Source: a virus. Taken from it: a stretch of DNA of 57,073 bases. The position numbers and the translations under genes were made by a program. Shown piece after piece: positions 17,406-31,057 of this stretch. Each line of letters starts with the position of its first letter. Position 1 is the first letter of the stretch. The notes under the pieces were generated by a model. That model was not told where the DNA came from. It did not search any database and was given only the letters and a program-made list of their open reading frames with translations. The DNA lies in IMG/VR virus record IMGVR_UViG_3300036861_000774. One strand, written 5' to 3'.

Positions 17406-18760
17406 GCCTGGTCAGCCGCGTCCGCTCCTACTTCCGCCCCGCGCCGTCGCCGCCTCCGCCATCGGCCGGCGAGGTCGCCTTCGCCGATCCGCGCCGGCTG
17501 TTCCCCTCCGGCTACTCGACGCCGTACAACCCGTCGGCGCTCGTCCGCGGCCGCGGCATGCGCATTTTCGAGGAAATGCGCAAGGATGATCAGGTCAAAG
17601 CGGCGCTCGCATTCAAAAAACACACGGTGATCGCGACCGGATGGACGGTGTCGAGCCCGGAAGGGCAGCCCGATGATTGGGAGCCAACGCGATTCGTGCG
17701 ATGGGTCCTGGAGAATCTTGACCCCACGGAGATCGGGAGCGTCACGCTCGACGGGGATTTGTATGAAGTCTTGGGGGCCCTCGACTTCGGCTTCAGTCTC
17801 ACCGAAAAGATCTGGGCGCCCATCGAATTCGGCGAGTTTTCGGGGAAAATCGGCCTGAAAAGCCTGAAAACGCGGGCACCGCATGACTTCCGCTTCGAGC
17901 AAGACGTCTACGGCAATCTGAATCCTGACGGGATCGTGCAGCCGGCAAACCCGAACTTTCCGGGCGGCAAGCTTCCCAGAGAGAAGTTCGCGCTCTTTAC
18001 GTACCAGTCTGAATTCGGCAATCCGTACGGGAGTTCGGATCTCGAAGCTGCGTATTTCCCATGGTGGATCAAGTCCAACGCCCAAAAATGGCTCGCGATG
18101 CTGCTCGAACGGCTCGGAATCCCCCCGATCTTTGGCCTCTACAATCCGAATATGTACAGCGGCGGGGCCGTTATCGATGAACTGAAGAAAGTGATGCAAA
18201 ACCTCCAGGCTGCGACGTTCGGCGTGATTCCGCGGCCGACGAAAGACGCGCTGGAGTTCTGGGCACCGGAACTCGCGGGGCAAGCGACGCGCGTCTTCAT
18301 CCCCTCGATGGAGTATCTGAACAACGCGATCGCCCGGGCGTTGCTCATGCCGGGGCTCTTGGGGATGACGTCGGACACTGCCGAGGGGTCGTTTGCCCGC
18401 GCGAAGGTCCATTTTGACGTCTTCATGCTGGTCGTCGAGAAGATTCGGAAGGATCTTGAGCTCGTCGTGATGATGCACCAGATCGTGCGCCCGCTGGTCG
18501 ATCTGAACTATCCTGGGATCGCGGAGTATCCGCTCTGGCGGTTCATGCCGTTGACCGATGATCTGCGGATCGAGCTGCTCGACCGGTGGGAGAAACTTGT
18601 CAACGCGAAGGTCGTGGTCCCGCAACAGGACGACGAGCCCTACATCAGAAAACTGGTGAAGTTTCCCGAGAAAAAACCGGGCACGGAGATTCCTATCGAG
18701 GAGCCTGCGGCCTCGAACGGACGCGCTGCTGAGGCGGTCACGACGGAAGGCGAGGCGTGA
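17402..18760 (+). CDS. Portal protein (Mu gp29 / DUF935-like)
   Basis: It lies downstream of the large terminase gene. FEEMRKDDQVKAALAFKKHTVIATGWTV matches the DUF935 N-terminal signature. It is about 450 aa. Confidence 0.7.
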   Translation: MSLVSRVRSYFRPAPSPPPPSAGEVAFADPRRLFPSGYSTPYNPSALVRGRGMRIFEEMRKDDQVKAALAFKKHTVIATGWTVSSPEGQPDDWEPTRFVRWVLENLDPTEIGSVTLDGDLYEVLGALDFGFSLTEKIWAPIEFGEFSGKIGLKSLKTRAPHDFRFEQDVYGNLNPDGIVQPANPNFPGGKLPREKFALFTYQSEFGNPYGSSDLEAAYFPWWIKSNAQKWLAMLLERLGIPPIFGLYNPNMYSGGAVIDELKKVMQNLQAATFGVIPRPTKDALEFWAPELAGQATRVFIPSMEYLNNAIARALLMPGLLGMTSDTAEGSFARAKVHFDVFMLVVEKIRKDLELVVMMHQIVRPLVDLNYPGIAEYPLWRFMPLTDDLRIELLDRWEKLVNAKVVVPQQDDEPYIRKLVKFPEKKPGTEIPIEEPAASNGRAAEAVTTEGEA

Positions 18761-18957
18761 TGGCGACGGAGTTCAACGATCTCGTCCCGCTGACGGAGAT
18801 CGCTCGGCGTCTGGAACTCCATCCGAAAACGGTGAAACGTCTGCACCGTGGCGAAGGTCTCCCGCTGATCCGCTTGACCGACGGCGGCCCCTACTACGGC
18901 TTCTGGTCCTCCGTGCAGGCGTGGGCTCGCAAACGAGGGGATATCGTGAAAACCTGA
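18757..18957 (+). CDS. Excisionase/MerR-type helix-turn-helix DNA-binding protein
   Basis: LVPLTEIARRLELHPKTVKRLHRGEGLPLIRL fits the excisionase-family HTH pattern. It is coupled to the portal stop. Confidence 0.55.
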   Translation: MMATEFNDLVPLTEIARRLELHPKTVKRLHRGEGLPLIRLTDGGPYYGFWSSVQAWARKRGDIVKT

Positions 18958-19076
18958 CCTCGTGTCAAGGGTATAAATCGGAATCTAGCGGCACAACCCC
19001 CCCCTCCAACCGGAACATCTCGGCTTTCCTGAAAATCGACCCTTTACGGTAGTAGCGGCATGGGCACTGTGCTCGA

Positions 19077-20609
19077 TTGCAGGTGAGCGCCGTCGCGACC
19101 TACGTCATCGAAAAACGCGGCGAGAAATGGTGTCTGCTTACCCATGACCGCAGTCGCGTCCTCGGTTGTCACGATAGCCAGGCGGACGCCGAAGCCCAGG
19201 AACGCGCCGTCCAGGCGCGCAAACACGCCGAAAAGGACCTCTACACGGTTCCCGCGGTCGAGATCTTCCGCACCGGCAAGTGGAACGGGGATGACTACAG
19301 CACACAGGACCTCGACGCGATGGTCGCTGCGGCCTCGACCGTTGGGTTCACGCCGCCGATCAAGGCGGGGCATGAGGACGCGGGCGGGAAGCCCGCGCTC
19401 GGCTGGGTCGAGAACCTCCGGCGGGTTGGCTCGACGCTCGTGGCCGATCTGGTCGCGCTGCCGAAGAAGGTGTACGACGCGATCAAGCGGCGCTCGTACG
19501 ATCGCGTGTCGGCCGAGATCTACTGGGATCTGGAGCGCAACGGCCAGACCTTCCCGCGCGTCCTGAAGGCGCTGGCCCTGCTCGGCGCCGAGATTCCGGC
19601 GGTTGATCTCCAGCCGCTCCACGCGTTTCTGTCGATGCCGCCGATGCCGTCCCTTCCCGCCGCGAAGTTTGCGACCTACGCGGTGGATCTGAAAGCGCAC
19701 GCGGTCGTCATCACCCGGGAGCAGATGGCCGCGCTTTGTCCCGAGTGCGCCACGCAGATGACGGCAAAGAAGATCACGGCGCTGCGGATTCCGCGTGACG
19801 ACGCTGGGACCTATGACTTCGCGGAGGCGTTCAAGCCTTACGCGGGTTTCTCGGACGCGCTCTGCGAGAAATTCTCCCCGGCCGAGGGGTTCCGGACACG
19901 CTGCGCCGGCACCATGGCGGCCAATGTGGACGATGCCGAAGCGTTCTGTAACAGCCTCAAAGAGTGGTGCGGCCTCATGGCCGAGCGCCGGAGGGCGAAG
20001 ATGGCCGACGACAACAAGGACCAGGCGATCGCGGATCTCACGGCCGAGGTGGCCCAGCTCAAGCAGCAATTGCAGGCCAAGGACGGCGAGATCGTGGTGC
20101 CCCTCACGCAGCTGAAGGAGATGCAGGAGAAGATCGCTCGCCTCGAGCCGCTGGAGGCCGTTGAAGTCAAGCTCCAGCAGAAAGAAACCGAGCTCGACGA
20201 GGTCCAGGAGCAGCATCGCCGGGAGCGGGTGGCGCACAAGGTGGCGGGCCTGAAGATCCCCGCCCTGCGATCCTTCGCTCGGGTGTTCTACGACCTGGCG
20301 TTGCACACCAACGGCGCTCGGACCTACACGCTTCTCGGTGAGGGCAAGAAGCAACTGAGCGCCGAGGACATCGTCGACGCCTGGATCGGCGAGATGAACC
20401 AGAAAGCCGACTGGCTGTTCCAGACGTTCTCGACGAAGTCGAAGCCGGTGGACACCGACGAGCCGGATGAGCCCGGAGCCCGGGTGGCCTATCGCGTTCA
20501 GAAGTACCTCGAGCAGAACAAACTCGATCGCGTGAAGGACTACCGCAAGGCGCTCACCACCGTGCTCGATGCGGACCCAGAACTGAAGCTGGCCTACAGC
20601 ACCTCGTAG
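19077..20609 (+). CDS. Prohead protease / scaffolding fusion (Mu gpI-like)
   Basis: The N-terminus PPIKAGHEDAGGKPALGWVENLRRVGSTLVADL ... YDRVSAEIYW resembles the Mu I protease domain. The C-terminus is a long coiled coil (AEVAQLKQQLQAKDGE ...). The start is either TTG 19077 or GTG 19083. Confidence 0.55.
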   Translation: MQVSAVATYVIEKRGEKWCLLTHDRSRVLGCHDSQADAEAQERAVQARKHAEKDLYTVPAVEIFRTGKWNGDDYSTQDLDAMVAAASTVGFTPPIKAGHEDAGGKPALGWVENLRRVGSTLVADLVALPKKVYDAIKRRSYDRVSAEIYWDLERNGQTFPRVLKALALLGAEIPAVDLQPLHAFLSMPPMPSLPAAKFATYAVDLKAHAVVITREQMAALCPECATQMTAKKITALRIPRDDAGTYDFAEAFKPYAGFSDALCEKFSPAEGFRTRCAGTMAANVDDAEAFCNSLKEWCGLMAERRRAKMADDNKDQAIADLTAEVAQLKQQLQAKDGEIVVPLTQLKEMQEKIARLEPLEAVEVKLQQKETELDEVQEQHRRERVAHKVAGLKIPALRSFARVFYDLALHTNGARTYTLLGEGKKQLSAEDIVDAWIGEMNQKADWLFQTFSTKSKPVDTDEPDEPGARVAYRVQKYLEQNKLDRVKDYRKALTTVLDADPELKLAYSTS

Positions 20610-20624
20610 GGGAGGGACTAACAG

Positions 20625-21014
20625 ATGGCGGAATTTGGCGCTCCGGAACTCCTCACGTTGACGCTGGAGGCGGCGGCCGATCTGAGCGCGGTCCAGTACC
20701 ACGTCGTGCGCCATTCGGCGGCTCAGAAGTGCAACGTGGCCAGTGACGCCACCAACAGCGGCGTCCTCGGGATTCTTCAGACGAAGCCGAAGTCGGGCGA
20801 GTTCGGTACGGTGGCCGTCGGGGGCAAATCCAAGGCCGTCGCGGGAGCGGCGATCACACTGCCGGCAGTCATCACGCATAACAGCAGTGGGCGGGTGGCG
20901 ACGGTCACGTCCGGTCAGATGGCGATCGGCCGGGCGCTCGAAGCCGCCTCGGCTGATGGCGACATCATCACCGTCCTCCTGTTCCAGCCGGTGCGCTGGG
21001 CGGGCGCGGCGTAA
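20625..21014 (+). CDS. Head decoration-like protein (DUF2190-like)
   Basis: A 129-aa Gly/Ala/Val-rich beta-type protein directly upstream of the capsid gene. GGGGAGGG lies upstream. Confidence 0.55.
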   Translation: MAEFGAPELLTLTLEAAADLSAVQYHVVRHSAAQKCNVASDATNSGVLGILQTKPKSGEFGTVAVGGKSKAVAGAAITLPAVITHNSSGRVATVTSGQMAIGRALEAASADGDIITVLLFQPVRWAGAA

Positions 21015-21025
21015 GGGGGCCGATT

Positions 21026-21994
21026 ATGGAGAAGCGCTACGCCGTCGCCGCCGCCAGTGGACGGGACGCCCATCTCGACGCACCGCTGACCAACCTCGCG
21101 GTCGCGGCCTTCGCCTCCGGGGCGGAGGGCTACATCGCCTCCCAGATCTTCCCGGCCGTTCCCGTGGACAAGCAGTCGAACCGCTACTACATCATCGATC
21201 CGGACTCGTGGCTCCGCGTGCCGGACACCCGGAGAGCGCCCAAGACCCGACCGAATCGTATCGAGTTCAAGGTGTCCTCGGACGCCTACTTCGCGAACAA
21301 CTACGCGTTGGCGGGCGACATCGCGAAGGAGGATCTCGCCAACGCCGATCGCGCGCTCCAGGTTCGTGAGAACACCACGAACATCGTGCTCCAGTCGCTC
21401 CTGCAAGACTTCGAGGTCCGGGTCGCGAACCAGGTGACCTCGGCCACCAACGTCGGCTCGGGTGTGACCGTCTCCAGCAAGTGGAGCGATCTCACGAACT
21501 CCAACCCGCTCGTCGACGTGACGACGGCGATCGCCTTCATTCGACAGACGACCGGTATCATGCCGAACACCCTGGTGGTCGACGAGGATACCTACCAGGT
21601 GCTCCGACGCCATTCGAAGCTCCTGGAGCTGTATAAGTACACGTCCGGTGGCCTGCTCGGTGACGACCAGATCGCCGCAGCGATGGGCGTGACGCGTCTG
21701 CTCCGCGGGCGCGGCATCGTGAACCGGGCCCTCGAAGGTCAGACGGCCTCGATGGTCAATATCTGGGGCAACAACGCCTTGCTGGCCTACGTGCAGCCGG
21801 GGCTCAGCATGATGACGGCCACGCTGGGGCTGGCCCTTCAGTGGACGCCGGAGGGCATCCCGGGCCCGATGGCCGTCTATCGCTACGACGATCCGGACCC
21901 CGGAAAAAAGGTGGAGACGGTCGAAGCCTGTTACTACCAGGCCGAAAAGATCGTCGGCAAGAACCTCGGCTATCTGATGGTGGCGCCGAGATAA
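21026..21994 (+). CDS. Major capsid protein
   Basis: Called from its position after the protease and decoration genes, its size (322 aa), and the N-terminal signature YIASQIFPAVPVDKQSNRYYI seen in E-type/HK97-fold capsid proteins. Confidence 0.7.
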   Translation: MEKRYAVAAASGRDAHLDAPLTNLAVAAFASGAEGYIASQIFPAVPVDKQSNRYYIIDPDSWLRVPDTRRAPKTRPNRIEFKVSSDAYFANNYALAGDIAKEDLANADRALQVRENTTNIVLQSLLQDFEVRVANQVTSATNVGSGVTVSSKWSDLTNSNPLVDVTTAIAFIRQTTGIMPNTLVVDEDTYQVLRRHSKLLELYKYTSGGLLGDDQIAAAMGVTRLLRGRGIVNRALEGQTASMVNIWGNNALLAYVQPGLSMMTATLGLALQWTPEGIPGPMAVYRYDDPDPGKKVETVEACYYQAEKIVGKNLGYLMVAPR

Positions 21995-22194
21995 TGCAGC
22001 GCGTCTTCATCAGGCAGACTGCCGACTTTAGGGTCGGTGACCTGAGCCCAGAAAACTGGTCCGACCCGCAGTGGGAGTCGTTTCAGCGCGCCCATGGTCC
22101 GCAGGAGACGTATTCGGTTACCGTGGAGGAGGCTCAGAAGGTTGGCGCCGAGACCATCGCGGCTCAGCGTGGTCGGCGTGGACCGCGCCCGTAG
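21994..22194 (+). CDS. Hypothetical head-module protein (66 aa)
   Basis: TAATG coupling to the capsid gene stop. Confidence 0.4.
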   Translation: MQRVFIRQTADFRVGDLSPENWSDPQWESFQRAHGPQETYSVTVEEAQKVGAETIAAQRGRRGPRP

Positions 22195-22203
22195 GGCGGC
22201 GCC

Positions 22204-22542
22204 ATGATCACGTACCCCACGATCCCGCTGAGCGGGACCGTGACCGACGTCATCGACGTCTCGCAGGCCCGCGACAACCTTGGGCTGTGGATTCCGACGA
22301 TCACCAGTGGGCAGGTATTGCTTCGCGGCTCATTCGATCAGACGTCGGCCAACTTCGTGCCCGTCTTCAACCCGAATGCGACCCCGATCTCGTCCCGCTG
22401 GTACGTGGATGCGGCGGCGGGCAACCTCACCCTGGCCATCGACTGGCAGGCCGTCACGTTTCCGTTCATCAAGCTGGAGACGTCGGTAGTTCAGGCCGCC
22501 GTCCGTTCGTTCGCCGTGTTTAGCAAGGGGGCCGGGGCGTGA
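22204..22542 (+). CDS. Hypothetical head-module protein (112 aa)
   Basis: A good ORF with GTGA coupling to the next gene. Confidence 0.45.
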   Translation: MITYPTIPLSGTVTDVIDVSQARDNLGLWIPTITSGQVLLRGSFDQTSANFVPVFNPNATPISSRWYVDAAAGNLTLAIDWQAVTFPFIKLETSVVQAAVRSFAVFSKGAGA

Positions 22543-25475
22543 CGGGCCTCGATATTTGTCTCCTTGTGTCAGGGCTGCCGTTTCAAGGCGATAGCCTGGA
22601 GAAAAAAAGCCTTGGGGGCGCGGAAACGGCCGGGCTTTGCCTGGCGCGGGAGCTCGCCCGTCTGGGTCATCACGTCATGATGTTCACGAACGGTGGATCC
22701 GGCGGCGTCTACGACGGGGTCGTGTATCGATCGGTCCACGAATTCACCGATTACGCCACCTCGGCGCCCCATGACGTGACCATTGTCCAGCGGCTCCCGC
22801 AAGGGTTTGCCACGAGGATGGCGAGCCGGCTCAACGTGCTCTGGTGCCACGATCTGGCGCTGGTGCGCCAGGCCGCGACCTTCAAGGCCGTGCTCTGGAA
22901 CGTCGACCGCGTGGCCGTCTTGTCGAAGTTCATGGCGGAACAGTACCGCGAGGTCTACGGCATCCCCGACGAGGTGCTCTGGACCACGCGGAACGGGATC
23001 GATCTGACCCTCTTCGATGGGTTGCACGATCGCCCGCGCGATCGCTGCACGCCGCTCGTCTACGGAGCTCGCCCGGAGCGCGGGATCGACGTGCTGTTGA
23101 CGACGATCTTTCCGCGTCTGCTCCGCGAGGAGCCGGGTCTCACGCTGAAAATCGCGACCTACGATAATCCGGTCCCTAATCTCCGCCCCTTCTACGACAA
23201 CGTTAACGCCCTGATCGAGCGGTTTGGGGACCGGATCGTCTTCCTTGGATCGCTCCCGAAGCGCCAGTATTACGAGCATCTTGCGACTGCCGGCGTGTAC
23301 GTGTATCCGACGCCCTCGCCGGCCGAACCGATGTTCGCCGAGATTTCCTGCATTACCGCCATGGAGTGCCAGGCGGCAGGGTTGCCGATCGTGACGAGTC
23401 GCCGCGGCGCGCTTCCAGAGACGATCGCGCCCGCTGCGGGGGTCTTGATCGACGGCGAGCCGGGCACGGAGGCGTACGCCGATGCATTCTGTGACGCTGT
23501 CCTGCGCTACGTGCGTGACGACGCGTTCTGGCGCGCGGCCTCCACCGCTGGGCGCGAGCGCGCGTCCTCGCTCGACTGGCGCGGGGTTGCCGAGGAATGG
23601 TCGGACGAATTCCATCGACTGATCCGGACGCGGAACGAGAGTCCACATCGACTCGTTCATCATTTCATCAAGCGGTCTGACATCATGGCGGCGCAGGCGG
23701 TCCTCGATCGCGAACTCGCCGAAGCGCCAGTTCTGATTGAGTCCGGGTGGCTCAAGCGACGCGAACCATTCGTAGAGCTCCGCGACCGCATCGCGCGCGA
23801 CTGGGCCTTCAGCTCGACTCGCGACGCGATCCGCGAACAGTACGAGAAGATCGGCCAGACCCATACCGACGTCTTCGAGCAGGTGCCACGCGAGCCCCGG
23901 TTCCAGATGCTGGAGCAGTGGTTCACGGCCCATCCAGAGATCACGCGCGTCCTTGATTTCGGCTGCGCGCATGGGGGCTACGCCGTCAACATGACCAATC
24001 GCGTGGGACGGGAATGGGTCGGAGTCGACGTCGACAAGTATTCGATCGAATGGTGCGAGAAGAATCGCCGGGAACGGTCCACGAATCCCGAAGCGCTCCG
24101 GTTCGTCGTCGGCGACGATCAGGTTGATCTGTCGAACGAAGCGCCCTTCGATTGCCTCCTGCTCTTCGAGATCCTGGAGCACGTGCCCGATCCGACTACG
24201 CTAATCGACCGGCTCGAGCGGTGGGTCAAACCGGACGGCTATGTGTTGATCACCGTGCCCTACGGCCCGTGGGAATGGATGTCGTACGAGACGTATCCCC
24301 ATCGGTGCCATCTCTGGGAATTCGACGCGCATGATCTCCGCGATCTCTTCGGGAAGAAGCGGCAGCGCATCACGCAGGTGATGCGGGCGGGAGCCTGCGA
24401 AGACCTGAATGAGCCGATCGGCTGGAACATCATCGAATACCGCGTTGACGGCACGCCGACCGGCCGGATCGATATGGAGCGAAAGCTCGCGCTTCAGCGT
24501 CCGCGGGAGACCGTCTCGGCCCTCATGATCGCGGGCCCAAACGCCGAGGAGACGCTCCACTGGTCGCTGCGATCCATCAGGCACGTCGCCGATGAGATCG
24601 TAATCGCCGATACCGGCATGACCGACGAGGCCAGTCGGATCTGCGCGCAGTATCGCGCCCGCATCATTCCAGGCTCGAATCCGACCGAGGCTGGCTTCGA
24701 GACGCCACGGAACGAAGCGCTGGCCCACTGCCGGATGGACTGGGTGCTGTGGATCGACACCGACGAGCGGCTGACCGATCCGCAGAAGCTCCACAAGTAC
24801 CTCCGGACGAACATCTTCCGGGGCTATTCGATCAAGCAACATCATTTCGCGTGCGACACCGCGATTGCGCAAGATCTACCGGTCCGGTGTTTCCGGCGGA
24901 CGCCTGACGCTGAGGGTCGGATGCTCCGGTGGTACGGGATGATCCACGAACATCCCGAGGCCGAGCTGAACAAAGGCCCCGGACTCGCGATCGTGCTGTC
25001 GGATGTGCACATCGCCCATGTCGGGTATCTGATCGAGTCGGGACGGCGCCGACGGTTCGGGCGGAATTGGCCCCTGCTCCAGAAGGACATGGAGAAGTAC
25101 CCGGATCGCATCATTCAGAAACATTTCATCTGCCGGGACAATCTCTTGCTCGCGCAGTGGGAACTTCAGCAGAACGACGGCGTGATGACGCCTGCGATTC
25201 GTGCGCGGCTTGAGGAAGTCAAGCGCCTGTACCGCGAGCACTTCCTCGGCAAAGGGACGTTCCTGGGCACGGATGCATTGCCCTATTACTCCGACGCGCT
25301 CCAGATGCTCGGGGAGGGCGTCGAGGTCGCCTTCGGCGTCGGCGCATCCAAGGAGCCCGGGGCGACCGTCGGGACGCCGATGAAGGCGAGGTTCGCGACG
25401 ATCGAGGAGGCCGAGAAGGAGATTGCGTGGCGCACACGCGAGGCCATGGCGCCCTGGGTGTCGCCATGGTGGTAG
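22539..25475 (+). CDS. Tri-domain enzyme: GT4-type glycosyltransferase, class I SAM methyltransferase and GT2-type glycosyltransferase
   Basis: GT4: GGAETAGLCLARELARLGHHV ... ITAMECQAAGLPIVTSRRGALPE. Methyltransferase: VLDFGCAHGGYAV ... LLFEILEHVPDP ... PDGYVLI. GT2: SALMIAGPNAEETL ... IVIADTGMTD ... VLWIDTDERL. Confidence 0.85.
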   Translation: MTGLDICLLVSGLPFQGDSLEKKSLGGAETAGLCLARELARLGHHVMMFTNGGSGGVYDGVVYRSVHEFTDYATSAPHDVTIVQRLPQGFATRMASRLNVLWCHDLALVRQAATFKAVLWNVDRVAVLSKFMAEQYREVYGIPDEVLWTTRNGIDLTLFDGLHDRPRDRCTPLVYGARPERGIDVLLTTIFPRLLREEPGLTLKIATYDNPVPNLRPFYDNVNALIERFGDRIVFLGSLPKRQYYEHLATAGVYVYPTPSPAEPMFAEISCITAMECQAAGLPIVTSRRGALPETIAPAAGVLIDGEPGTEAYADAFCDAVLRYVRDDAFWRAASTAGRERASSLDWRGVAEEWSDEFHRLIRTRNESPHRLVHHFIKRSDIMAAQAVLDRELAEAPVLIESGWLKRREPFVELRDRIARDWAFSSTRDAIREQYEKIGQTHTDVFEQVPREPRFQMLEQWFTAHPEITRVLDFGCAHGGYAVNMTNRVGREWVGVDVDKYSIEWCEKNRRERSTNPEALRFVVGDDQVDLSNEAPFDCLLLFEILEHVPDPTTLIDRLERWVKPDGYVLITVPYGPWEWMSYETYPHRCHLWEFDAHDLRDLFGKKRQRITQVMRAGACEDLNEPIGWNIIEYRVDGTPTGRIDMERKLALQRPRETVSALMIAGPNAEETLHWSLRSIRHVADEIVIADTGMTDEASRICAQYRARIIPGSNPTEAGFETPRNEALAHCRMDWVLWIDTDERLTDPQKLHKYLRTNIFRGYSIKQHHFACDTAIAQDLPVRCFRRTPDAEGRMLRWYGMIHEHPEAELNKGPGLAIVLSDVHIAHVGYLIESGRRRRFGRNWPLLQKDMEKYPDRIIQKHFICRDNLLLAQWELQQNDGVMTPAIRARLEEVKRLYREHFLGKGTFLGTDALPYYSDALQMLGEGVEVAFGVGASKEPGATVGTPMKARFATIEEAEKEIAWRTREAMAPWVSPWW

Positions 25476-25486
25476 GGCGGTGAGCG

Positions 25487-26002
25487 ATGCCAGCGACCCT
25501 GCCAGTCTCCTATACGACCACGAGTCTGATGTTCATCACGTTGCCGGATCTCGGCAGCGTGACGACGCTGAGCAGCGCCCACATCGCGACCTTCGCTGGT
25601 GAGGCCGAGTCCGAGATCAATGCCAACATCGCGAGGTATTACGCACTCCCGCTGACGGTTGACGTTCCGCTCCTGACGACCCTCGCGACCGATATCGCGA
25701 TTTACAAGATCTTGACTCGGCGGTTATTCACGGCCGAGCGTCTGGCCGCCAGCCCCTGGCCCGATCGGTACCGGGAATCTATCGCCATGCTGCTCAGGGT
25801 CGCGGCCGGCGAATTGCCACTCGTCGATGCGTCTGGCGCCATGCTTCCCGGACGCACCGATGTGGCCGAGGTGTTCTCGACGACGAAGAACTACAAGCCG
25901 ACGTTCTGGGAAGGCCCGAATCAGTATCAGTGGATCGATCAGCAGAAGGTGGAGGACGAGGCTGCCGCCCGGGACATCACGCTTCGGAACATGGTGCGCT
26001 GA
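25487..26002 (+). CDS. Head-tail connector protein (Mu gp36 / DUF1320-like)
   Basis: AESEINANIARYYALPL ... LATDIAIYKILTRR matches the DUF1320 pattern. Confidence 0.65.
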   Translation: MPATLPVSYTTTSLMFITLPDLGSVTTLSSAHIATFAGEAESEINANIARYYALPLTVDVPLLTTLATDIAIYKILTRRLFTAERLAASPWPDRYRESIAMLLRVAAGELPLVDASGAMLPGRTDVAEVFSTTKNYKPTFWEGPNQYQWIDQQKVEDEAAARDITLRNMVR

Positions 26003-26436
26003 TGCGGATTGATTACTGGGGTCTGGAAGAAGAGGTGAAGGCGATCCTCGATACCGAATTGGTCGATGGGCACGTTGATATCGAGCGCGAGTTTCAGTTC
26101 GCGAGCGAATCGACACCATGGGTCGGGATCTATCTCGATCGCCGTGACGCCCCTGCCAGTCTGCAACCTCTCGCGGCTGGCAAGCAGACGCGGATGCTCG
26201 TCCGCCTTCGCCTCGACTGCCGAGCCTACAGCCTGGAGTCGATCGCTCGGGCGAGTCAGTTCCGCGATGAACTCATCGGGCGCGTGGAAGTCGCGCTCAT
26301 GAAGCACCGAGACCTGAACGGGAAGGCGACGGCGAGCTGGCTGGAGGGCGGGTCGTTCTCGCGTGTGCCTCAGCAGGACGGCTGGATCAGTGGCGGCGAA
26401 GTGATGCTCGTGGCCGACGTGAAAGCGACGACGTAA
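26002..26436 (+). CDS. Head-tail joining / tail completion-like protein (144 aa)
   Basis: TGATG coupling. Called on its position between the connector and the tail tube only. Confidence 0.4.
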   Translation: MRIDYWGLEEEVKAILDTELVDGHVDIEREFQFASESTPWVGIYLDRRDAPASLQPLAAGKQTRMLVRLRLDCRAYSLESIARASQFRDELIGRVEVALMKHRDLNGKATASWLEGGSFSRVPQQDGWISGGEVMLVADVKATT

Positions 26437-26448
26437 AGGAGAGCCCGC

Positions 26449-27411
26449 ATGCCCTACGGATTCGCGGGATTTATCGGTTTTGCGGAGGAGACGACGTGGG
26501 GCACCCCCGTCGGTGTCAACTCGGGCGATTTCATCGAGGCGATGAGCGAGAACGTCACCCTCGCGATCGATCGCTATGAGGCCCGCAACATCGTCGGCCG
26601 GTTCGTGGAGGGCGACGACTTCGCGGGAACACGGCGAATCGTCGGCGATCTTGTGTTCCCGGCCCATCCGCTGCATCTGGGCCGGTTCCTGAAAGCCAAC
26701 TTCGGCAATATCTCGACGGTCACGGTGGTACTCTCCGGCTTCCTGTGGGAGGTGGACTTCCGCCCTGCCACAGCCGACGCGGCGGCGAACAATCCCCTGC
26801 CGCCTCTAACGCTGGAGATCTTTCGCGACGTTACGAGCTCCAACCGCTACGCCGGCGCGCAGGTCACGAAGCTGGGTCTGTCGGTGCAGCCGAACCAGGA
26901 CCTTCGGGCGACGGCGAGCATTCTCGCGAAGACGACCAGCATGGTGGCGAAGTCGACCCCGACGTATCCGGCGACTGGAACCAACCCGTTCGTGTTCGAC
27001 ACCGCGAGCGTGCAGATTGCTGGCAGCGCCGTGGATTACGTCGAATCGCTGGCCATCGAGTTCGACAACCAGCTCGAGGGCATCCCGGTCTTGAACAACT
27101 CGACTGACATCGCGAGGGTGCGACGGCGCGGTGCCCAGCAGATTCGGGTACGAGGCACGGTTGGGTTCGAGACCGCGGCGGAATATGGGCGCTTCACGCA
27201 ACAGAGCGAAGCCAACCTCGTCGCGTCCTGGGCCCAGACGAATTCGTTCGGGCTTGTGCTGCGGGTCCCGCGACTGATTTACACGGCGTTTCCGCTCGGA
27301 ATGCCAGGCGATCAACGGCTCACGGTGGCCTTCGAGGGCATGGGGCGCTTTGACGCGACGCTGGGCTTCGCGCTGCAGGCACGGCTGACGACCGTGAAGA
27401 GCAACTACTGA
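26449..27411 (+). CDS. Major tail tube protein
   Basis: A 320-aa protein immediately upstream of the frameshifted chaperone pair. Its N-terminus FAEETTWGTPV is typical of siphovirus tube proteins. Confidence 0.6.
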   Translation: MPYGFAGFIGFAEETTWGTPVGVNSGDFIEAMSENVTLAIDRYEARNIVGRFVEGDDFAGTRRIVGDLVFPAHPLHLGRFLKANFGNISTVTVVLSGFLWEVDFRPATADAAANNPLPPLTLEIFRDVTSSNRYAGAQVTKLGLSVQPNQDLRATASILAKTTSMVAKSTPTYPATGTNPFVFDTASVQIAGSAVDYVESLAIEFDNQLEGIPVLNNSTDIARVRRRGAQQIRVRGTVGFETAAEYGRFTQQSEANLVASWAQTNSFGLVLRVPRLIYTAFPLGMPGDQRLTVAFEGMGRFDATLGFALQARLTTVKSNY

Positions 27412-27782
27412 TGAAATGCCTGACGCGCGATCAGATCCTCGCCGCAGAAGACCTCCCGCGGAAGCTCGTCGAAGTCCCAGAGTGGGGCGGGTCGGTCTAC
27501 GTCCGACATCTAACGGCCCAGGAGCGGGTCGAGTGGGCCTCGCAGGCCGATGCGCCAAAAGGACACACCATCGCGAGCCTCTTGGTGCTCTGTCTTGTGG
27601 ACGCGGATGGCCATCATGTATTCACGAAGGACGACATCCCGAAACTGCTGGAGAAAAACGGCGTCGTGGTCGATCGCCTCGCCGGCGAAGTCATCGAGCT
27701 CAACGGGCTGCGGGCGCGGGACGAGGAGCGGATCCTAAAAAACTCCGGGGCCGGCCCGAGCGCCGGCTCCACCTCCGAATAG
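27411..27782 (+). CDS. Tail assembly chaperone (G-like, zero-frame product)
   Basis: It lies between the tube and tape-measure genes, is 123 aa, and has a slippery heptamer near its 3' end. Confidence 0.7.
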   Translation: MKCLTRDQILAAEDLPRKLVEVPEWGGSVYVRHLTAQERVEWASQADAPKGHTIASLLVLCLVDADGHHVFTKDDIPKLLEKNGVVVDRLAGEVIELNGLRARDEERILKNSGAGPSAGSTSE

Positions 27783-27928
27783 CGAGAGAGCTGGGGATGC
27801 CATCGGTGCGTGAGCTCTACCACCGGGTGACGAACGCGGAATTGGTCGAACTCGTCGCGCTCTATGTGCTGGAGGCGGAGGACATGCGGCGCATAGAGAC
27901 CGAGGCGCGGTTAAGGAGCGCCCACTGA
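27411..27928 (+). CDS. Tail assembly chaperone -1 frameshift fusion product (GT-like)
   Basis: After the slip at A_AAA_AAC (27737..27743), the -1 frame reads LRGRPERRLHLRIARELGMPSVRELYHRVTNAELVELVALYVLE to the stop at 27928. This is the tail of ORF 27416..27928. Confidence 0.65.
27737..27743 (+). promoter_or_regulatory. Programmed -1 ribosomal frameshift slippery site A_AAA_AAC
   Basis: The heptamer is in the X_XXY_YYZ phase of the chaperone frame (codons CTA AAA AAC). A GC-rich stretch (ccggggccggcccgagcgccggc) follows it. Confidence 0.65.
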
Positions 27929-28497
27929 TGGAGGTCAGCGGCGATGTCCGGCTCACCGGCCTCAAGGAACTTGACGATGCGCTTCGCGGGATTTCCGCTG
28001 AGGTCCGCGGCCCGATCATGCGCGACGCCCTGAAAGCCGGGGGCGAGGTAATCCGCGAGGGTGCCGCGAAGAACATCCATAGCCGGAGCGGACAGACTGC
28101 CGCCGAGCTGAACGTCGAGATTCAAATCGGTGATGAAGAGGTCGGCGGCGCTGCGGCAATTGGGGCGATCAAGGGCGGCCGTCCGACCAAGCGCAACCAC
28201 ATTCTGAACTTCCTGGAATTCGGCACGAAGGCCCATAACGAACCGAAGCGCCGGGGACGACTTCGCCGATTCGAGGCGCGAGCCGGGAAGTCGCTGAAGT
28301 CGATCAACGCGGCGAAGCGCGTCGCCTTCGGCGGCCGCGTGTTCTCACGTGTGCATCATCCCGGTATTCAGCCCCAGGCCCCCCTGACGAACGCGCTCGC
28401 GGATCAGGCCGGGGCCGCCATCGAAGCATTCATCCGGACAGCGTGGCGGGGTATCGAGGCCACGGCGGTCCGCTTCTCGGGGAAAGCGGGAGGATAG
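27928..28497 (+). CDS. HK97 gp10-family protein
   Basis: LTGLKELDDALRGI ... SRSGQTAAEL ... LEFGT ... HHPGIQPQAPL fits the HK97 gp10 family pattern. Confidence 0.6.
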   Translation: MEVSGDVRLTGLKELDDALRGISAEVRGPIMRDALKAGGEVIREGAAKNIHSRSGQTAAELNVEIQIGDEEVGGAAAIGAIKGGRPTKRNHILNFLEFGTKAHNEPKRRGRLRRFEARAGKSLKSINAAKRVAFGGRVFSRVHHPGIQPQAPLTNALADQAGAAIEAFIRTAWRGIEATAVRFSGKAGG

Positions 28498-28525
28498 GGC
28501 AATCGCGACAGCCGGCGCCCTAATT

Positions 28526-30691
28526 GTGGAGTTAAGGCTCAACGCCGTCGCGTTCCATGCCGAGCTCGACAGGGCGCGTAGCAACCTGGGTCGTACCGGA
28601 AAATCGAGCGAGACCTTGGCCGGCCAGATGCGCGAAGGAACCGTCGCGATCCGAGCCATGGGCGGCGAGGTTCTCTCTAAGTTCAACCCAGCGCTGGGGG
28701 GCGCGGTCTCGGCGTTCTCGGCCGTGACGCGCGAAGCGAAGACCCTGCCCATCGCCCTTGGCCTGACGACCCTGGCCGTGGGCGCTGCATCGATCGGCCT
28801 CAGCATCTACATCGAAAAACTGGATGAGGCCCAAAAGTTCACGGCCAAGCTCGGGTTCGCGCAGAAGTCGGCCGATCTCGGCGCCATCCGCGGACTGCTC
28901 TCCGATAACGCGCAGGCCATGGAGCTCTTCAGGATCCGCGCCGAGCAGGCGAGCAAAGCCTTGCAGGGCCAGCAGGTCTTTCGGGACCTCGCCCAAGGGA
29001 AGGTTGGCGGACTCCAGGACTTCGGGAAGGGCGCGCTGGCGAATATCCAGAACGCCCTGACCGGCGCGATTGCCGCCGCGCAAAACTTCTTCGCGCCCAA
29101 AGGGCTTGAGCAACTGAAGAAGGAGAGCGCCGAAGCCGGCGAGGCCCTCAAGCACATCTTGCCGAGCGAGACGGTGCGGATCACGGCCGAATGGCGGGCG
29201 GCGCTCGACCGTGTCAATCTCTCCCTAGCGCAGATCCAGGCCGAGAGCGCCGCGACCCAGAACGATCTCGATGGGTTCACGCAGGCGATGCGTGTTCAGC
29301 AGGAGGCGGCGGGGAGCCTTGCGCTGAAGCTCGAAGAGGCGCGACGCGCGCGCGGTGAATTCGAGTTGGCGCAGATCCGGGCTCGCACCGAGTTGGCCCC
29401 GGGGGCCCTCGACATTGAACTGGCTAACAAGCGGAGAGAGATCGAGACCGACATCGTCAAGATCCGGGGCGATGCGCTAACGGCGGAACTCCAGGGTCAA
29501 GAAAAACTCCGCGTAGGCCGGCTCGCCATCATCGAGCGTCGGCAGGCGGCGTTTCCGCCCGAGCCGGGCATCGAAGAGGCGGGGTTGCATGAGGCGCTCG
29601 GGGCTGGCATCCCGCTCGGGACGACGTTTCCTGAGGTTCTCGCCCGAGGCCGTGAGGCCGCGCGTGGATTCGACGATGCGATCGCCGCAATTATCAAGAC
29701 GGGCCAATTGCTCGGGCCAACGATGGATGCGGCGGCAGAAGAATTATCGGCGGTCGAAGCCGAGTTGCGCCGCCTTGCAGCCACTGATCTTCCGGCCACC
29801 GACAGTGCCTTGCAAGCGCTGGCCAGCCGATTTCAGACGCTACAGGTTCGTCAGACGATGCAGGAACTCTCGCGCGAGACGAAGATCGCTGAAGCTCAAG
29901 CCCGCCTGCTCGGGGGCGCGTTCGATGAGACGCCGCGGAAGATCGAGCTGATTCAAGCCGCAATGGTGTCGCTCCTCCGGGAAGGGATCGACCCGACCGA
30001 TGCCAGACTCCAGCGACTGAAGGCCGACTTTGACCGGCTCCGCGATATCGAGGGCGTCAAGGACGCCTTCCGCGGGACGTTCCAGGACATTACCAGCAGC
30101 CTCATCAACACGATCCGCACGGCCCAGAACGCGGGCGACGCCATGCTCAAGATCGTCGACAACGCCGTGACGGGCTTCGCCAACCGGATGCTCAACGTCG
30201 CGCTCAGGCCGCTCGAGGAAGAGCTTGCGCGACTCGCCGGGCGGCTCGGCGGGTTCATCTTCGGTGCCCCGTCCGGCACCCCGACTGCTGGGACCGATGT
30301 CGCCCTGGCCAAGGGCGGGGTCATCGGCGGTGACTTCCTCCCCTTCCGCGCCTTCGCCACTGGCGGTGTCGCGCGACGGCCCACGTTGGGCTTGATCGCC
30401 GAACACCCGGGCATGCAGGAGGCGGTCATCCCGCTTCAGGGCGGCGCAATCCCGGTCGCGTTTCAGGGGGGCGGCGATGCCCCTCGCGGCGCAGTGCCCA
30501 GCGTGATTGTGCAGGTCATCAACCAGGTTCCGGGCGCCGAATCTACGACCCAGGAATCAACCGGGCCCAACGGGGAACGACTGATCCAGATCCTCGTGGC
30601 AAAGGCGTTCCGCGATCAACTCCATCGTGGAGCCTTCGACCGCGATCTTGGCCTGGGCTTCGGGATGAGTCGCCGACCAGTGGGGCGCTAG
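28526..30691 (+). CDS. Tape measure protein
   Basis: A 721-aa protein, Ala/Leu/Gln-rich and predicted helical, located after the chaperone pair. Confidence 0.8.
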   Translation: MELRLNAVAFHAELDRARSNLGRTGKSSETLAGQMREGTVAIRAMGGEVLSKFNPALGGAVSAFSAVTREAKTLPIALGLTTLAVGAASIGLSIYIEKLDEAQKFTAKLGFAQKSADLGAIRGLLSDNAQAMELFRIRAEQASKALQGQQVFRDLAQGKVGGLQDFGKGALANIQNALTGAIAAAQNFFAPKGLEQLKKESAEAGEALKHILPSETVRITAEWRAALDRVNLSLAQIQAESAATQNDLDGFTQAMRVQQEAAGSLALKLEEARRARGEFELAQIRARTELAPGALDIELANKRREIETDIVKIRGDALTAELQGQEKLRVGRLAIIERRQAAFPPEPGIEEAGLHEALGAGIPLGTTFPEVLARGREAARGFDDAIAAIIKTGQLLGPTMDAAAEELSAVEAELRRLAATDLPATDSALQALASRFQTLQVRQTMQELSRETKIAEAQARLLGGAFDETPRKIELIQAAMVSLLREGIDPTDARLQRLKADFDRLRDIEGVKDAFRGTFQDITSSLINTIRTAQNAGDAMLKIVDNAVTGFANRMLNVALRPLEEELARLAGRLGGFIFGAPSGTPTAGTDVALAKGGVIGGDFLPFRAFATGGVARRPTLGLIAEHPGMQEAVIPLQGGAIPVAFQGGGDAPRGAVPSVIVQVINQVPGAESTTQESTGPNGERLIQILVAKAFRDQLHRGAFDRDLGLGFGMSRRPVGR

Positions 30692-31042: not shown

Positions 31043-31057
31043 ATGCTAGCGACCATC

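Follow-up and report, generated by a model that had tools for sequence, protein, structure and literature searches.

Two glycosyltransferase activities are combined with a chain-capping SAM methyltransferase in Geobacillus WsaE and in E. coli O8/O9a WbdA with WbdD, which serve lipid-linked acceptors at the membrane and are encoded in polysaccharide gene clusters. Among viruses, some mycobacteriophages encode glycosyltransferases that act on their capsid and tail tube proteins (Freeman et al. 2023, cited in PMC11600133). Virion glycosylation in clusters F, O and C (Che8, Corndog, Myrna) likewise involves phage glycosyltransferases plus an O-methyltransferase, with cluster O phages carrying three tandem glycosyltransferase (GT) genes downstream of the O-methyltransferase gene. 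In Cluster J mycobacteriophages, an insertion of 8–10 genes separates the major capsid gene from the head-tail connector gene and includes several glycosyltransferases, SAM methyltransferases and a fused methyltransferase (MT)-GT protein (Pope et al. 2013, PMC3706429). In chlorovirus PBCV-1, the three-domain GT-GT-MT enzyme A064R lengthens the glycan of the major capsid protein and adds a methyl group to its terminal sugar (PMC7826918); in A064R, as in A111/114R, two glycosyltransferase domains and one methyltransferase are joined in a single viral protein.

Here, we describe a 978-aa protein with this same complement of domains, encoded in a phage head operon (IMG/VR record IMGVR_UViG_3300036861_000774; the window is the whole stretch of 57,073 nt that was analysed). 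The genes concerned are listed below, with candidate acceptors of the proposed glycosylation marked.

17357–18760, plus strand: Mu-type portal, start of the head module (Pfam Portal_Mu, 4.6e-50)
20625–21014, plus strand: 129-aa capsid cement/decoration protein, candidate acceptor (Phage_cement_2, 2.3e-8, above cut-off; PHROG 673)
21026–21994, plus strand: major capsid protein, candidate acceptor (PHROG 1005, 2.4e-67)
22204–22542, plus strand: conserved 112-aa protein, candidate auxiliary capsid protein and candidate acceptor (GTGA overlap with the next gene)
22539–25475, plus strand: fusion gene, 978-aa GT4/SAM-methyltransferase/GT2 enzyme (GTG start, TAG stop; ORF and translation)
25487–26002, plus strand: head-tail adaptor of the Mu gp36/DUF1320 type (Pfam Phage_Mu_Gp36, 8e-12)
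26449–27411, plus strand: tail tube protein, candidate acceptor by analogy with mycobacteriophages (Pfam Phage_tube_2, 3.9e-23)

The glycosyltransferase and methyltransferase genes of Cluster J phages occupy the same genomic position as this fusion gene. Whereas mycobacteriophages rely on several separate genes, in sets that differ by cluster, a single GT4-MT-GT2 polypeptide is encoded here by a fixed core gene, and its hosts appear to be Gram-negative lineages, going by the labels of metagenome-assembled genomes (MAGs). Unlike WsaE and WbdA/WbdD, the enzyme belongs to a head operon and carries a GT2 domain of a subgroup whose characterised members use polypeptide acceptors. By analogy, A064R would be the nearest functional counterpart of a GT+GT+MT fusion acting on capsid, but it stems from a eukaryotic giant virus, has the domain order GT-GT-MT, measures 638 aa and acts on an N-linked glycan; it was absent from the top 50 BFVD fold matches of the fusion protein, and there is therefore no evidence of common descent. 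The preliminary description had not recognised the arrangement as a described one. The Cluster J insertion (PMC3706429) and A064R (PMC7826918) narrow this claim, which stands for the GT4-MT-GT2 fusion family itself: the family, and its core-gene status in a large uncultivated phage lineage, appear undescribed.

The gene had been read as one uninterrupted ORF, translationally coupled to its upstream neighbour and located between the capsid genes and a DUF1320-type connector gene. ORF calling and translation confirmed 978 aa for 22539–25475, Pfam and PHROG assignments of the neighbours confirmed the location, and at the junction (GGGGCGTGACGGGC) the GTG at 22539–22541 overlaps the TGA stop (22540–22542) of the 112-aa ORF. 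The motif AAGGGGG lies ~10 nt 5′ of this GTG; downstream, the TAG (25473–25475) is followed 11 nt further on by the ATG of the gp36-type adaptor. JGI calls a 969-aa protein, automatically named ‘glycosyltransferase involved in cell wall biosynthesis’. Of the two starts, the GTG at 22539 is preferable, because residues 4–9 (LDI...) are kept across aligned homologues and the first β-strand of the AlphaFold model falls there (E5-10). The high-GC window is full of long spurious ORFs, such as a 537-aa antisense ORF. For the fusion gene, a chance-ORF reading was rejected on the strength of more than 500 full-length homologues, representing 435 clusters at 50% identity; the 120 homologues listed all match at E ≤ 1e-281 and nearly all over the full length.

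The protein divides as follows.

22539–23648, plus strand: GT-B/GT4 domain, aa 1–370 (Pfam; Gly-rich loop SLGGAE, 24–29; EX7E, E268...E276)
23649–23918, plus strand: helical linker, aa 371–460, the least conserved segment
23919–24458, plus strand: class I SAM-dependent methyltransferase, aa 461–640 (motif I VLDFGCAHGG; D497)
24459–25028, plus strand: GT-A/GT2 domain of the GmaR/ThuS/SunS type, aa 641–830 (DxD, D740-T-D742; invariant motif GMIHEHPE, 800–807)
25029–25472, plus strand: C-terminal helical domain with a small β element, aa 831–978, conserved

Pfam and PDB profile searches supported the anticipated two glycosyltransferases and one methyltransferase, all three above Pfam thresholds. 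Glyco_transf_4 matched residues 26–157 (42 bits; cut-off 28.5) and Glyco_trans_1_4 residues 179–319 (45.6 bits; cut-off 27); Methyltransf_23 matched residues 463–605 (70 bits, 2.6e-19; cut-off 27), as did Methyltransf_11/25/31/12 within the same domain; and Glycos_transf_2 matched residues 668–748 (37.1 bits; cut-off 23.3). The motifs VLDFGCAHGG (471–480), EILEHVPDP (544–552) and WIDTDERL (738–745) lie where they had been noted. Foldseek with the predicted structure agreed, the GT4 domain retrieving GT4 enzymes (ManT 7qsg, PimB' 3oka and MshA 3c4q; target TM 0.69–0.72, E ~1e-15). PDB profile matches of the methyltransferase domain were small-molecule and sugar O/N-methyltransferases. In an alignment of 45 homologues spanning 45–76% identity, G26, G27, E29, E268 and E276 of the GT4 domain, G475, G479, D497, E544 and E547 of the methyltransferase, and D740, D742, E743, H803, E804, H805 and E807 of the GT2 domain are invariant. 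Column conservation indicates similar constraint across all domains; it is lowest (0.43) in the linker, whose model helices span 369–439 with a fall in pLDDT at 399–401. The AlphaFold model of the whole protein is compact (pLDDT 93.3, pTM 0.92), values that, as a prediction, indicate one fixed three-domain body. The Kyte-Doolittle value over 19 residues never exceeds 1.41; lacking a hydrophobic segment, the enzyme is predicted to be soluble. The C-terminal domain (conservation 0.59; model helices 833–853, 858–878, 885–901, 914–924 and 955–974) had no match in the Pfam scan; it is a possible acceptor-binding module, by analogy with GmaR and SunS, whose GT domains are followed by helical/TPR regions.

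To place the GT2 domain, a profile of it and the C-terminal region was searched against PDB. GmaR, the flagellin glycosyltransferase of Listeria (PMC3150276), was matched at 6e-24 over the whole catalytic domain, followed by the peptide S-glycosyltransferases ThuS (1.4e-13) and SunS (1.9e-10), while all remaining PDB GT2s scored 1.5e-6 or worse, over the first 70–110 residues only. Foldseek was consistent with this placement (ranks 31–37). The likeness to L. monocytogenes GmaR (PDB 22ao, N-terminal GT2), ThuS (7msk) and SunS (7msp/7msn) covers aa ~641–850 and includes the stretch after the DxD (IHE.. / H.GY); a helical region after the GT2 domain is common to the fusion protein, GmaR and SunS. 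The GT2 domain call of the preliminary description was upheld, but not its end at ~760, as the GmaR alignment carries the catalytic domain to ~830–850. On this evidence, the domain belongs to the GmaR/ThuS/SunS subgroup, whose three characterised members all transfer sugar to a polypeptide; the kinship is best read as a subgroup placement, distinct from a measured specificity. In contrast to these relatives, the GT2 domain here is fused behind a GT4 and a methyltransferase, as the C-terminal third of the protein; Pfam detects no TPR family in its helical tail, and neither an anti-repressor domain nor a glycocin gene cluster accompanies it.

The head module had been called Mu-like, which holds for the portal and the gp36 adaptor only. 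Elsewhere, the genome has a terminase of the TerL_ATPase/TerL_nuclease kind and a siphovirus tail of the lambda-J type, and the scanned ORFs included no Mu transposase; a tyrosine integrase marks it as temperate. Two DNA methylase genes also lie in the window, one for a C5-cytosine enzyme (a fragment) and one for an N6/N4 enzyme. No promoter-like site was found within 20500–26500. The 112-aa protein represents a family of ~110 aa (motif D-x-TSANFVR ... FPFxRLETSVAQ) whose genes follow the capsid gene in at least 24 loci and precede the fusion gene wherever a contig holds both. Its model (pLDDT 84) predicts a small jelly-roll, with weak fold matches (E ~1e-3, TM ~0.5) that include jelly-roll chains of the phage capsids 7-7-1, BPP-1 and Carin1 and of the Milano neck/portal-vertex structure.

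A synteny survey found the same fusion between capsid and connector genes to recur in IMG/VR. IMG/VR contigs with homologues number 231, and 31 MAG species of very diverse taxonomy carry them too; none was found in a cultured genome, and tblastn of the 978-aa protein against 50,697 GenBank phages returned none, mycobacteriophages being without a match at E ≤ 1e-5. The fusion gene was found almost without exception between the major capsid and Mu-gp36 adaptor genes; most of 84 loci, as well as loci with database gene calls, share the arrangement capsid–(variable region)–fusion–gp36 adaptor–tube. Capsid homologues lay upstream of the fusion gene in 50 of the 84, and the gp36 adaptor was the next detectable conserved gene 3′ of it in most related loci. 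Among loci recovered with the capsid protein alone, the fusion gene was present on all contigs with sufficient DNA downstream, 43 with a long match and eight cut by a contig end—one of which (L130) has the order capsid–gp36–fusion—and no locus had an adaptor or tube but lacked the fusion gene. Fusion identity correlated with capsid identity (Spearman rho 0.70, p 3e-11, n = 69). In all scorable related phages, the fusion gene is fixed in the head module and co-diverges with it. In 4 of 69 non-redundant loci that include both genes, it lies on the strand opposite the head genes, although it keeps its place between capsid and adaptor if an adaptor was detected; co-transcription with the head genes is therefore not obligatory. 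Related head genes went undetected in 5 of the 31 MAG loci (L086, L088, L089, L098 and L100). L088, a 385-kb Myxococcales contig, has a Ser/Thr kinase, a HEAT-repeat protein, a sigma factor and a trypsin-like peptidase as neighbours; given these five loci and this neighbourhood, the enzyme may also act outside a virion context. Chromosomal copies of the L088 type adjoin small Ser/Thr-rich proteins, and some relatives have extra glycosyltransferases, a glycoside hydrolase and lectin-like proteins close by.

We propose, with a probability of about one half, that the protein is a soluble cytoplasmic trifunctional enzyme glycosylating a phage virion protein late in infection. Virion glycosylation had been suggested in the preliminary description and gains indirect support from the GT2 subgroup and from the head-module position with capsid co-divergence; in addition, the rigid protein keeps all three of its catalytic domains intact and conserved. 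From there we infer the acceptor, step order, sugars, methyl target and benefit to the phage. The GmaR/SunS-type inverting GT2 would begin by glycosylating a Ser/Thr, or possibly Cys, side chain of a head protein, candidate acceptors being the major capsid, 129-aa cement, 112-aa jelly-roll and tail tube proteins. The retaining GT4 would then add a second, alpha-linked sugar or lengthen the chain, and the methyltransferase would O-methylate a sugar hydroxyl, capping or diversifying the glycan, although its target could be protein instead of sugar. Ordinary nucleotide sugars of the host would serve as donors, since no genes for sugar-nucleotide synthesis appear in the scanned part of the genome. 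Mycobacteriophage glycosylation uses Ser/Thr-rich tails on virion proteins; none is obvious in the capsid, cement, 112-aa or tube proteins, which counts against the proposal. The outcome would be a virion coated with methylated glycan; if true, this would be a short methylated sugar chain on a virion protein, as shown so far only in a few mycobacteriophages and algal viruses.

Remodelling of a host envelope glycan (O-antigen, capsule or exopolysaccharide), with a methyl-capped disaccharide unit built or extended on a lipid-linked or cell-surface acceptor, is an unlikely but tenable alternative; its purpose, equally tentative, might be to block superinfection or to keep progeny phage from sticking to debris. 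Sets of GT4, GT2 and methyltransferase typically occur where O-antigens and S-layer glycans are made in an ABC-transporter-dependent way and chains are terminated by a methyl cap (WbdA/WbdD, WsaE). The JGI name, the temperate genome, the carbohydrate-active neighbours in some relatives and the chromosomal, non-phage-looking context of L088 fit as well, as does the opposite-strand gene in a minority of loci, reminiscent of an independently transcribed moron. Yet the GT2 groups with GmaR/ThuS/SunS rather than with GtrB or polymerising types, the protein lacks a membrane segment, and no flippase, Wzx/Wzy or ABC transporter was found among the scanned ORFs of the window. Moreover, the integrase is ~21 kb away from the gene, which is surrounded by late head genes and translationally coupled, and whose behaviour is that of a core gene co-diverging with capsid rather than of a sporadic lysogenic-conversion moron.

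That GmaR, the closest solved GT2 relative, glycosylates flagellin raises the quite improbable alternative of a host protein (e.g. a surface filament like flagellin or pilin, or another receptor) being modified so that a receptor is masked during or after infection. The soluble enzyme and the Ser/Thr-rich proteins beside L088-type copies would suit such a role, but flagellar or pilus genes adjoin the gene in none of the loci examined, and a place beside capsid and adaptor with capsid co-divergence would be unexpected given the very diverse MAGs. We consider it very doubtful that the product is a free molecule in the cytoplasm, be it a glycosylated small molecule or a methylated oligo- or polysaccharide, serving as packaging aid, osmolyte or assembly aid rather than as a protein modification. 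The best GT4 Foldseek match, 7qsg, is a mannosyltransferase of mycobacterial methylmannose polysaccharide synthesis, a pathway in which glycosyl transfer alternates with O-methylation, and the D-glucose O-methyltransferase 6uv6 is among the methyltransferase profile matches; however, 7qsg is only marginally ahead of dozens of other GT4 enzymes, the GT2 affinity is to polypeptide glycosyltransferases, and nothing in the locus suggests such a pathway. Scarcely credible, finally, is glycosylation of hypermodified bases in phage DNA before packaging, as by T4-type and other phage DNA glycosyltransferases. Phage glycosyltransferases decorating 5-hydroxymethylpyrimidines exist (bioRxiv 10.1101/2023.12.21.572611), the window holds the two DNA methylase genes mentioned above, and the gene is presumably expressed together with packaging-stage genes. 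Against this, TET/JBP dioxygenase and dNMP hydroxymethylase are absent among 30 early and late ORFs scanned, the methyltransferase is of the small-molecule class I type rather than a DNA methylase, and the GT2 groups with polypeptide glycosyltransferases. In one homologue (P0017), an intein is inserted at the GMIHEHPE motif of this GT2 domain.

An ORF of 978 codons with a GTG start had been described at 22539–25475 (+), coupled to the gene in front of it by a GTGA overlap, and both features were recovered on translation: the GTG overlaps the TGA stop codon of a 112-codon ORF (22204–22542, +), the DNA reading GGGGCGTGACGGG. A purine-rich AAGGGGG lies ~10 nt 5' of the GTG, and the ATG of the next gene follows 11 nt 3' of the stop codon. 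In the database, the corresponding gene call, P0001, has its start at 22566, nine codons further on, and a length of 969 aa. Because residues 4–9 are conserved across the aligned homologues and form the first β-strand of the predicted Rossmann fold in an AlphaFold2 model, we consider 22539 the better start. Between 20500 and 26500, no sigma-70-like promoter was found; the sole plus-strand terminator-like hairpin straddles the fusion start codon, and the count of such hits in this interval did not exceed that in shuffled sequence. The gene also harbors a 537-codon antisense ORF, and long spurious ORFs do arise in high-GC DNA. Its more than 500 homologues (the 120 listed all at E ≤ 1e-281) nevertheless mark the fusion ORF as a real gene.

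The three enzyme signatures read from the sequence in the preliminary description, namely a GT4 glycosyltransferase, a SAM methyltransferase and a GT2 glycosyltransferase, all scored above the curated Pfam cut-offs, with four sister families accompanying Methyltransf_23. NCBIfam contained no model reaching its cut-off for the fusion protein or its small neighbors.

Pfam families in the fusion protein (encoded at 22539–25475, plus strand)
aa 26–157, Glyco_transf_4 (PF13439), 42 bits, cut-off 28.5
aa 179–319, Glyco_trans_1_4 (PF13692), 45.6 bits, cut-off 27
GT4 part, Glycos_transf_1 (PF00534), 33 bits, cut-off 26.4
aa 463–605, Methyltransf_23 (PF13489), 2.6e-19, 70 bits, cut-off 27
aa 668–748, Glycos_transf_2 (PF00535), 37.1 bits, cut-off 23.3

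Aligning 45 homologues of 45–76% identity revealed invariant positions in each of the three domains. These comprise the Gly-rich loop G26-G27-x-E29 and both glutamates of the C-terminal EX7E motif (E268-ISCITAM-E276) in GT4; G475 and G479 of methyltransferase motif I (VLDFGCAHGG) together with the acidic D497; and both aspartates of the GT2 DxD motif (D740-T-D742). The GT2 domain further contains a striking invariant block, G800-x-x-H803-E-H-P-E807. Column conservation ranged from 0.57 to 0.68 in the GT4, methyltransferase, GT2 and C-terminal parts, and only the helical linker was lower (0.43). This evenness, combined with the invariance of the catalytic positions, argues that all three predicted activities are under purifying selection. 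The AlphaFold2 model built from the 45-homologue alignment (pLDDT 93.3, pTM 0.92 over the whole chain) points to three domains packed rigidly into one body, not strung like beads. It places four to five helices after the GT2 domain, at 833–924 and 955–974, in which Pfam detected no TPR family.

To which known enzymes is each domain closest? The best PDB sequence match of the whole protein was GmaR, the Listeria flagellin glycosyltransferase (PMC3150276). With a profile of the GT2 and C-terminal parts, GmaR was matched at 6e-24 over 195 positions, covering its full catalytic domain, followed by the glycocin S-glycosyltransferases ThuS (1.4e-13) and SunS (1.9e-10). All remaining GT2 structures in the PDB scored 1.5e-6 or worse and aligned over the first 70–110 residues only, beginning with chondroitin synthase (1.5e-6, 68 positions). 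Foldseek, too, retrieved SunS and ThuS for the GT2 region. By these comparisons, the GT2 domain belongs to the GmaR/ThuS/SunS polypeptide-glycosylating subgroup, the characterized members of which all transfer sugar onto polypeptide. We regard this as the strongest single clue to function, it being a subgroup assignment rather than a measured specificity. The fold of the GT4 part matched PimB', MshA and BshA (Foldseek target TM 0.69–0.74). Since this part is about equally close to many retaining GT-B enzymes, including ManT of methylmannose polysaccharide synthesis, PimB', MshA, GlgM and BshA, it is uninformative on the acceptor. The methyltransferase is a generic class I enzyme. Its profile matches were likewise spread, over small-molecule O- and N-methyltransferases (among them a glucose O-methyltransferase (6uv6), UbiG and PMT), and the closest enzymes of solved structure use small molecules and sugars as methyl acceptors.

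Bases 1–127 of the window recur exactly at 56947–57073. As a perfect 127-nt terminal direct repeat is a signature of circular assembly or terminal redundancy, the window represents a complete phage genome with a unit length of 56,946 bp. Its early region (4143–8683) holds a DUF5131 gene and both DNA methylase ORFs.

Features of the window upstream of the head genes
516–1664, tyrosine integrase
1758–2270, HNH endonuclease
4143–4940, DUF5131 protein
5436–7970, 844-aa protein whose C-terminal part contains an N6/N4 DNA methylase domain
7832–8683, ORF of 283 aa that overlaps ORF 5436–7970 and partially matches a C5-cytosine methylase

An ERF recombinase and a PD-(D/E)XK nuclease are also encoded. 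The head and tail genes include a terminase of the TerL_ATPase/TerL_nuclease type and a Mu-type portal, together with a protease, a cement protein of 129 aa (Phage_cement_2), the major capsid protein and the 112-aa protein; next come the fusion enzyme, a Mu gp36-type head-tail adaptor, a tail tube (Phage_tube_2) and a tip protein resembling lambda J. The label ‘Mu-like’, previously given to this module, suits the portal and the adaptor (Portal_Mu 4.6e-50; Phage_Mu_Gp36 8e-12, Pfam) and nothing further, because the window also carries a tyrosine integrase, a TerL-type terminase and siphovirus tail genes. No transposase (MuA/MuB, DDE) was seen among the ORFs scanned, a set excluding some small ORFs. 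The phage is a temperate siphovirus and not a transposable one.

We surveyed synteny across related loci on IMG/VR and MAG contigs (designated by L-numbers). The fusion gene lies between capsid and connector genes in the window, as originally described, and also in most of these loci. The order is strongly conserved, as portal – protease – cement – capsid – (variable region of 0.3–7 kb) – fusion – gp36 adaptor – ... – tube, and in half of the loci with both genes scored the adaptor match starts less than 150 nt past the fusion match. To avoid circularity, a second IMG/VR search used a capsid-protein alignment as query. This search returned 70 new loci, 43 of them with a long fusion match and eight more with a match cut by the contig end, while 19 had too little downstream DNA to score; among the eight with a cut match, L130 was ordered capsid – gp36 – fusion. 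An adaptor or tube without the fusion occurred in none of the 70, a survey that covered the best 80 of 198 matches and used capsid patterns derived from fusion-bearing phages. Moreover, fusion identity tracked capsid identity (Spearman 0.70, p 3e-11, n = 69). Taken together, the fixed synteny, the capsid-anchored survey and this co-divergence argue that the fusion is not a sporadic moron but belongs, by vertical inheritance, to the core genes of a single large uncultivated phage lineage.

Four of 69 non-redundant loci carry the fusion gene on the strand opposite to the capsid gene, still within the capsid–adaptor interval wherever an adaptor was detected, implying that co-transcription with the head genes is not essential. 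An opposite-strand subclade with capsid identities of ~38–42% comprises L059, L074 (=L180), L076, L077 (=L160), L155 and L158; whenever a contig of this subclade includes both capsid and adaptor genes, the fusion gene is placed between the two.

We next asked how widespread the family is. A collection of 5.8 billion proteins contained at least 540 homologues, the best 120 listed being nearly all full-length (955–1000 aa) and of identical architecture. Querying with the C-terminal third returned 435 clusters at 50% identity (E ≤ 1e-30), mostly of ~960–1000 aa; another search with this third gave mostly fragments of the fusion family plus one TPR-GT2 protein. The fusion is encoded on 231 IMG/VR contigs and, in a set of genomes with one per species (185,579 species), at 31 loci, all in MAGs labeled as Myxococcota/Polyangiaceae, Deltaproteobacteria, Desulfarculales, SAR324 and others. 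The hosts are thus apparently Gram-negative, and the 50%-identity clusters come from soil, groundwater, marine and other samples. Long contigs of the MAG set carry prophages, such as L102 (Desulfarculales) and L096 (Deltaproteobacteria). No cultured genome with the fusion was found. Among 50,697 GenBank phages, tblastn detected no full-length homologue; at E ≤ 1e-5, it returned five records, none a mycobacteriophage, matching the GT4 part only at 25–28% identity, and megablast of window positions 15000–35000 against GenBank phages gave no match. Cultured phages that share the capsid family (27–32% identity) lack the fusion, namely the Roseobacter phages CRP-6 and RDJL Phi 1, Pseudomonas RSP/KPP23, and Arthrobacter and Vibrio phages.

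The slot between capsid and fusion genes (e.g., L186:5145-9978, L041:3624-6259, L003:4583-9710) differs in cargo from phage to phage, including Kelch β-propeller and lectin-like Laminin_G_3 proteins (both in L186), a glycoside hydrolase (L041), extra glycosyltransferases and large proteins without a Pfam match. In L052, a 694-aa GT4+GT2 protein devoid of a methyltransferase and a further 690-aa GT4 protein lie 5' of the fusion (L052:1942-4023, L052:4876-6945), and a Laminin_G_3 protein lies 3' of it, ahead of the adaptor gene (L052:11382-12176). A radical-SAM gene sits between the portal and protease genes of L186.

Architectural variants of the protein also occur: P0030 (1249 aa) has an extra N-terminal methyltransferase domain, and P0066 (1344 aa) a duplicated methyltransferase–GT2 unit. 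Inteins (Pfam Intein_splicing/HNH_3) interrupt P0017 (1292 aa), at query residues ~800–803 within the invariant GMIHEHPE motif of GT2, and P0118 (1385 aa), at about residue 24 in the SLGGxE loop of GT4; L043, L048, L069, L093, L094 and L097 probably contain inteins as well. The location of the inteins at catalytic motifs points to an important, conserved phage gene.

Five MAG loci (L086, L088, L089, L098 and L100) had no related head genes detectable by tblastn. Their fusion homologues are full-length, with 41–50% identity in L086, L088 and L089 and 31–34% in L098 and L100. The L088 copy (L088:9989-12955) resides on a 385-kb Myxococcales MAG contig among genes for a Ser/Thr kinase, a HEAT-repeat protein, a sigma factor and a trypsin-like peptidase; immediately 5' of it, three small paralogs rich in Ser/Thr are encoded. 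L089 is of Myxococcales origin too. The L086 homologue is followed by a radical-SAM protein and a further GT4. Copies without head genes may be domesticated or belong to a different mobile element.

The best-supported reading, to which we assign a probability of roughly one half, is that the fusion enzyme glycosylates a virion protein in the cytoplasm. Here, the glycan would most plausibly be begun by the GmaR/SunS-type GT2 domain on a side chain of a protein; addition or extension would fall to the retaining GT4 domain, and O-methylation of a sugar, as performed by A064R of PBCV-1, to the methyltransferase. As candidate acceptors we consider the capsid and cement proteins, the tail tube and the 112-aa protein; no obvious Ser/Thr-rich tail was seen in the head and tube proteins of the window. 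The 112-aa protein is encoded by the gene whose stop overlaps the fusion start, and it belongs to a conserved family without a PDB sequence match. Its conserved Ser/Thr residues include S35, S48 and T93. It is predicted to adopt a jelly-roll (model pLDDT 84) and gave weak fold matches (E ~1e-3, TM ~0.5) to jelly-roll chains of the Agrobacterium phage 7-7-1, Bordetella phage BPP-1 and Carin1 capsids, as well as to a neck/portal vertex jelly-roll chain of phage Milano (E ~1e-3). Because its fold matches to jelly-roll decoration proteins are weak, a role as a decoration protein is a suggestion only. Kinship with the small Ser/Thr-rich proteins 5' of the L088 copy was rejected (profile-profile probability 0.4%).

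Alternatively, the enzyme could remodel glycans of the host envelope, which we deem unlikely, given that the hallmarks of Gtr-type serotype conversion are missing: the fusion protein contains no membrane-spanning or hydrophobic segment, no flippase-like match appeared among the ORFs scanned in the window, and the gene is located within the head operon, separated from the integrase by ~21 kb, whereas O-antigen modules of the Gtr type, made up of a membrane-embedded GT2 (GtrB), a flippase and a serotype-specific GT, sit beside integrase/att. That a host protein is the acceptor seems improbable to us, and that the product is a free methylated saccharide decidedly improbable. Modification of DNA by glycosylation we hold to be very improbable, as a Pfam scan of 30 further window ORFs revealed no TET/JBP-type enzyme, hydroxymethylase or sugar-nucleotide synthesis gene.

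Extending the virion-protein reading to the lineage as a whole gives a bolder and more tentative proposal, which we put below even odds. Here, a widespread lineage of uncultivated tailed phages of Gram-negatives, spanning hundreds of 50%-identity clusters, would make obligatorily glycosylated virions by means of one trifunctional head-operon enzyme that writes a methyl-capped glycan on a capsid-surface protein, for example the cement or the 112-aa jelly-roll protein. On this view, head morphogenesis in the lineage would include virion glycosylation as an ancient core component, and the trait would not be confined to a few actinobacteriophages as an accessory.

Only for some mycobacteriophages is it documented, to our knowledge, that virions are glycosylated by enzymes which the phage itself encodes; there, glycosylation alters antibody recognition. 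It has been established for these phages by Freeman et al. 2023, as relayed in PMC11600133. In Cluster J mycobacteriophages, an insertion of 8–10 genes separates the capsid genes from those for the head-tail connector and contains several glycosyltransferases, SAM methyltransferases, a fused methyltransferase–glycosyltransferase protein and a two-domain glycosyltransferase, the targets of which the authors left open (PMC3706429). Their genomic position equals that of the fusion gene, but the mycobacteriophage enzymes have no detectable sequence relationship to it (tblastn, E ≤ 1e-5). The nearest multidomain precedent comes from a giant algal virus: A064R of chlorovirus PBCV-1 is a three-domain GT-GT-MT enzyme for the capsid glycan (PMC7826918).

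The arrangement had initially been taken as undescribed. This no longer applies to the genomic position, given Cluster J, or to a GT-GT-MT capsid-glycan enzyme, given PBCV-1, and, as far as our literature searches show, still applies to the GT4-MT-GT2 family. In these searches, we found no description of this fusion family, its GmaR-type GT2 domain or its constant place in a head module of the Mu-portal/gp36 kind, nor of its spread through hundreds of uncultivated phage clusters with apparently Gram-negative hosts. The preliminary interpretation is therefore partly supported, being strengthened on the side of a protein acceptor and corrected on novelty and on ‘Mu-like’.

If our reading is true, virion glycosylation would be far commoner than thought, including in phages of Gram-negative hosts, and could belong to the core of the head module, inherited vertically with it. 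The whole pathway would then reside in one soluble 978-aa protein, which would be attractive as a complete tool for glyco-engineering of proteins in the bacterial cytoplasm. The fixed position, together with the invariant HEHPE and ERG motifs, provides a simple metagenome marker for the fusion-bearing lineage.

Three repeat features of the window were noted in passing. At 45707–47767 (+), a 686-aa proline-rich protein without a Pfam match consists almost wholly of degenerate ~32-aa repeats (LLFQRPLxGxxQPxxVVxxPxLxxVPFAE), visible in the DNA as 85-nt and 63-nt repeat families. A 9-nt tandem array (54245–54557; 23 overlapping register copies) lies in ORF 53842–54579 (+), the 245-aa product of which has a long Ala/Asp run (AADAADAAD...) and no Pfam match. 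Finally, a perfect 34-nt direct repeat occurs at 9536–9569 and 9719–9752, 183 nt apart, its 3' end, GGGAGGGGACGTAGATG, resembling a ribosome-binding site followed by ATG; the stop codon of ORF 8958–9566 falls within the first copy, and the ATG of ORF 9750–10268 closes the second.
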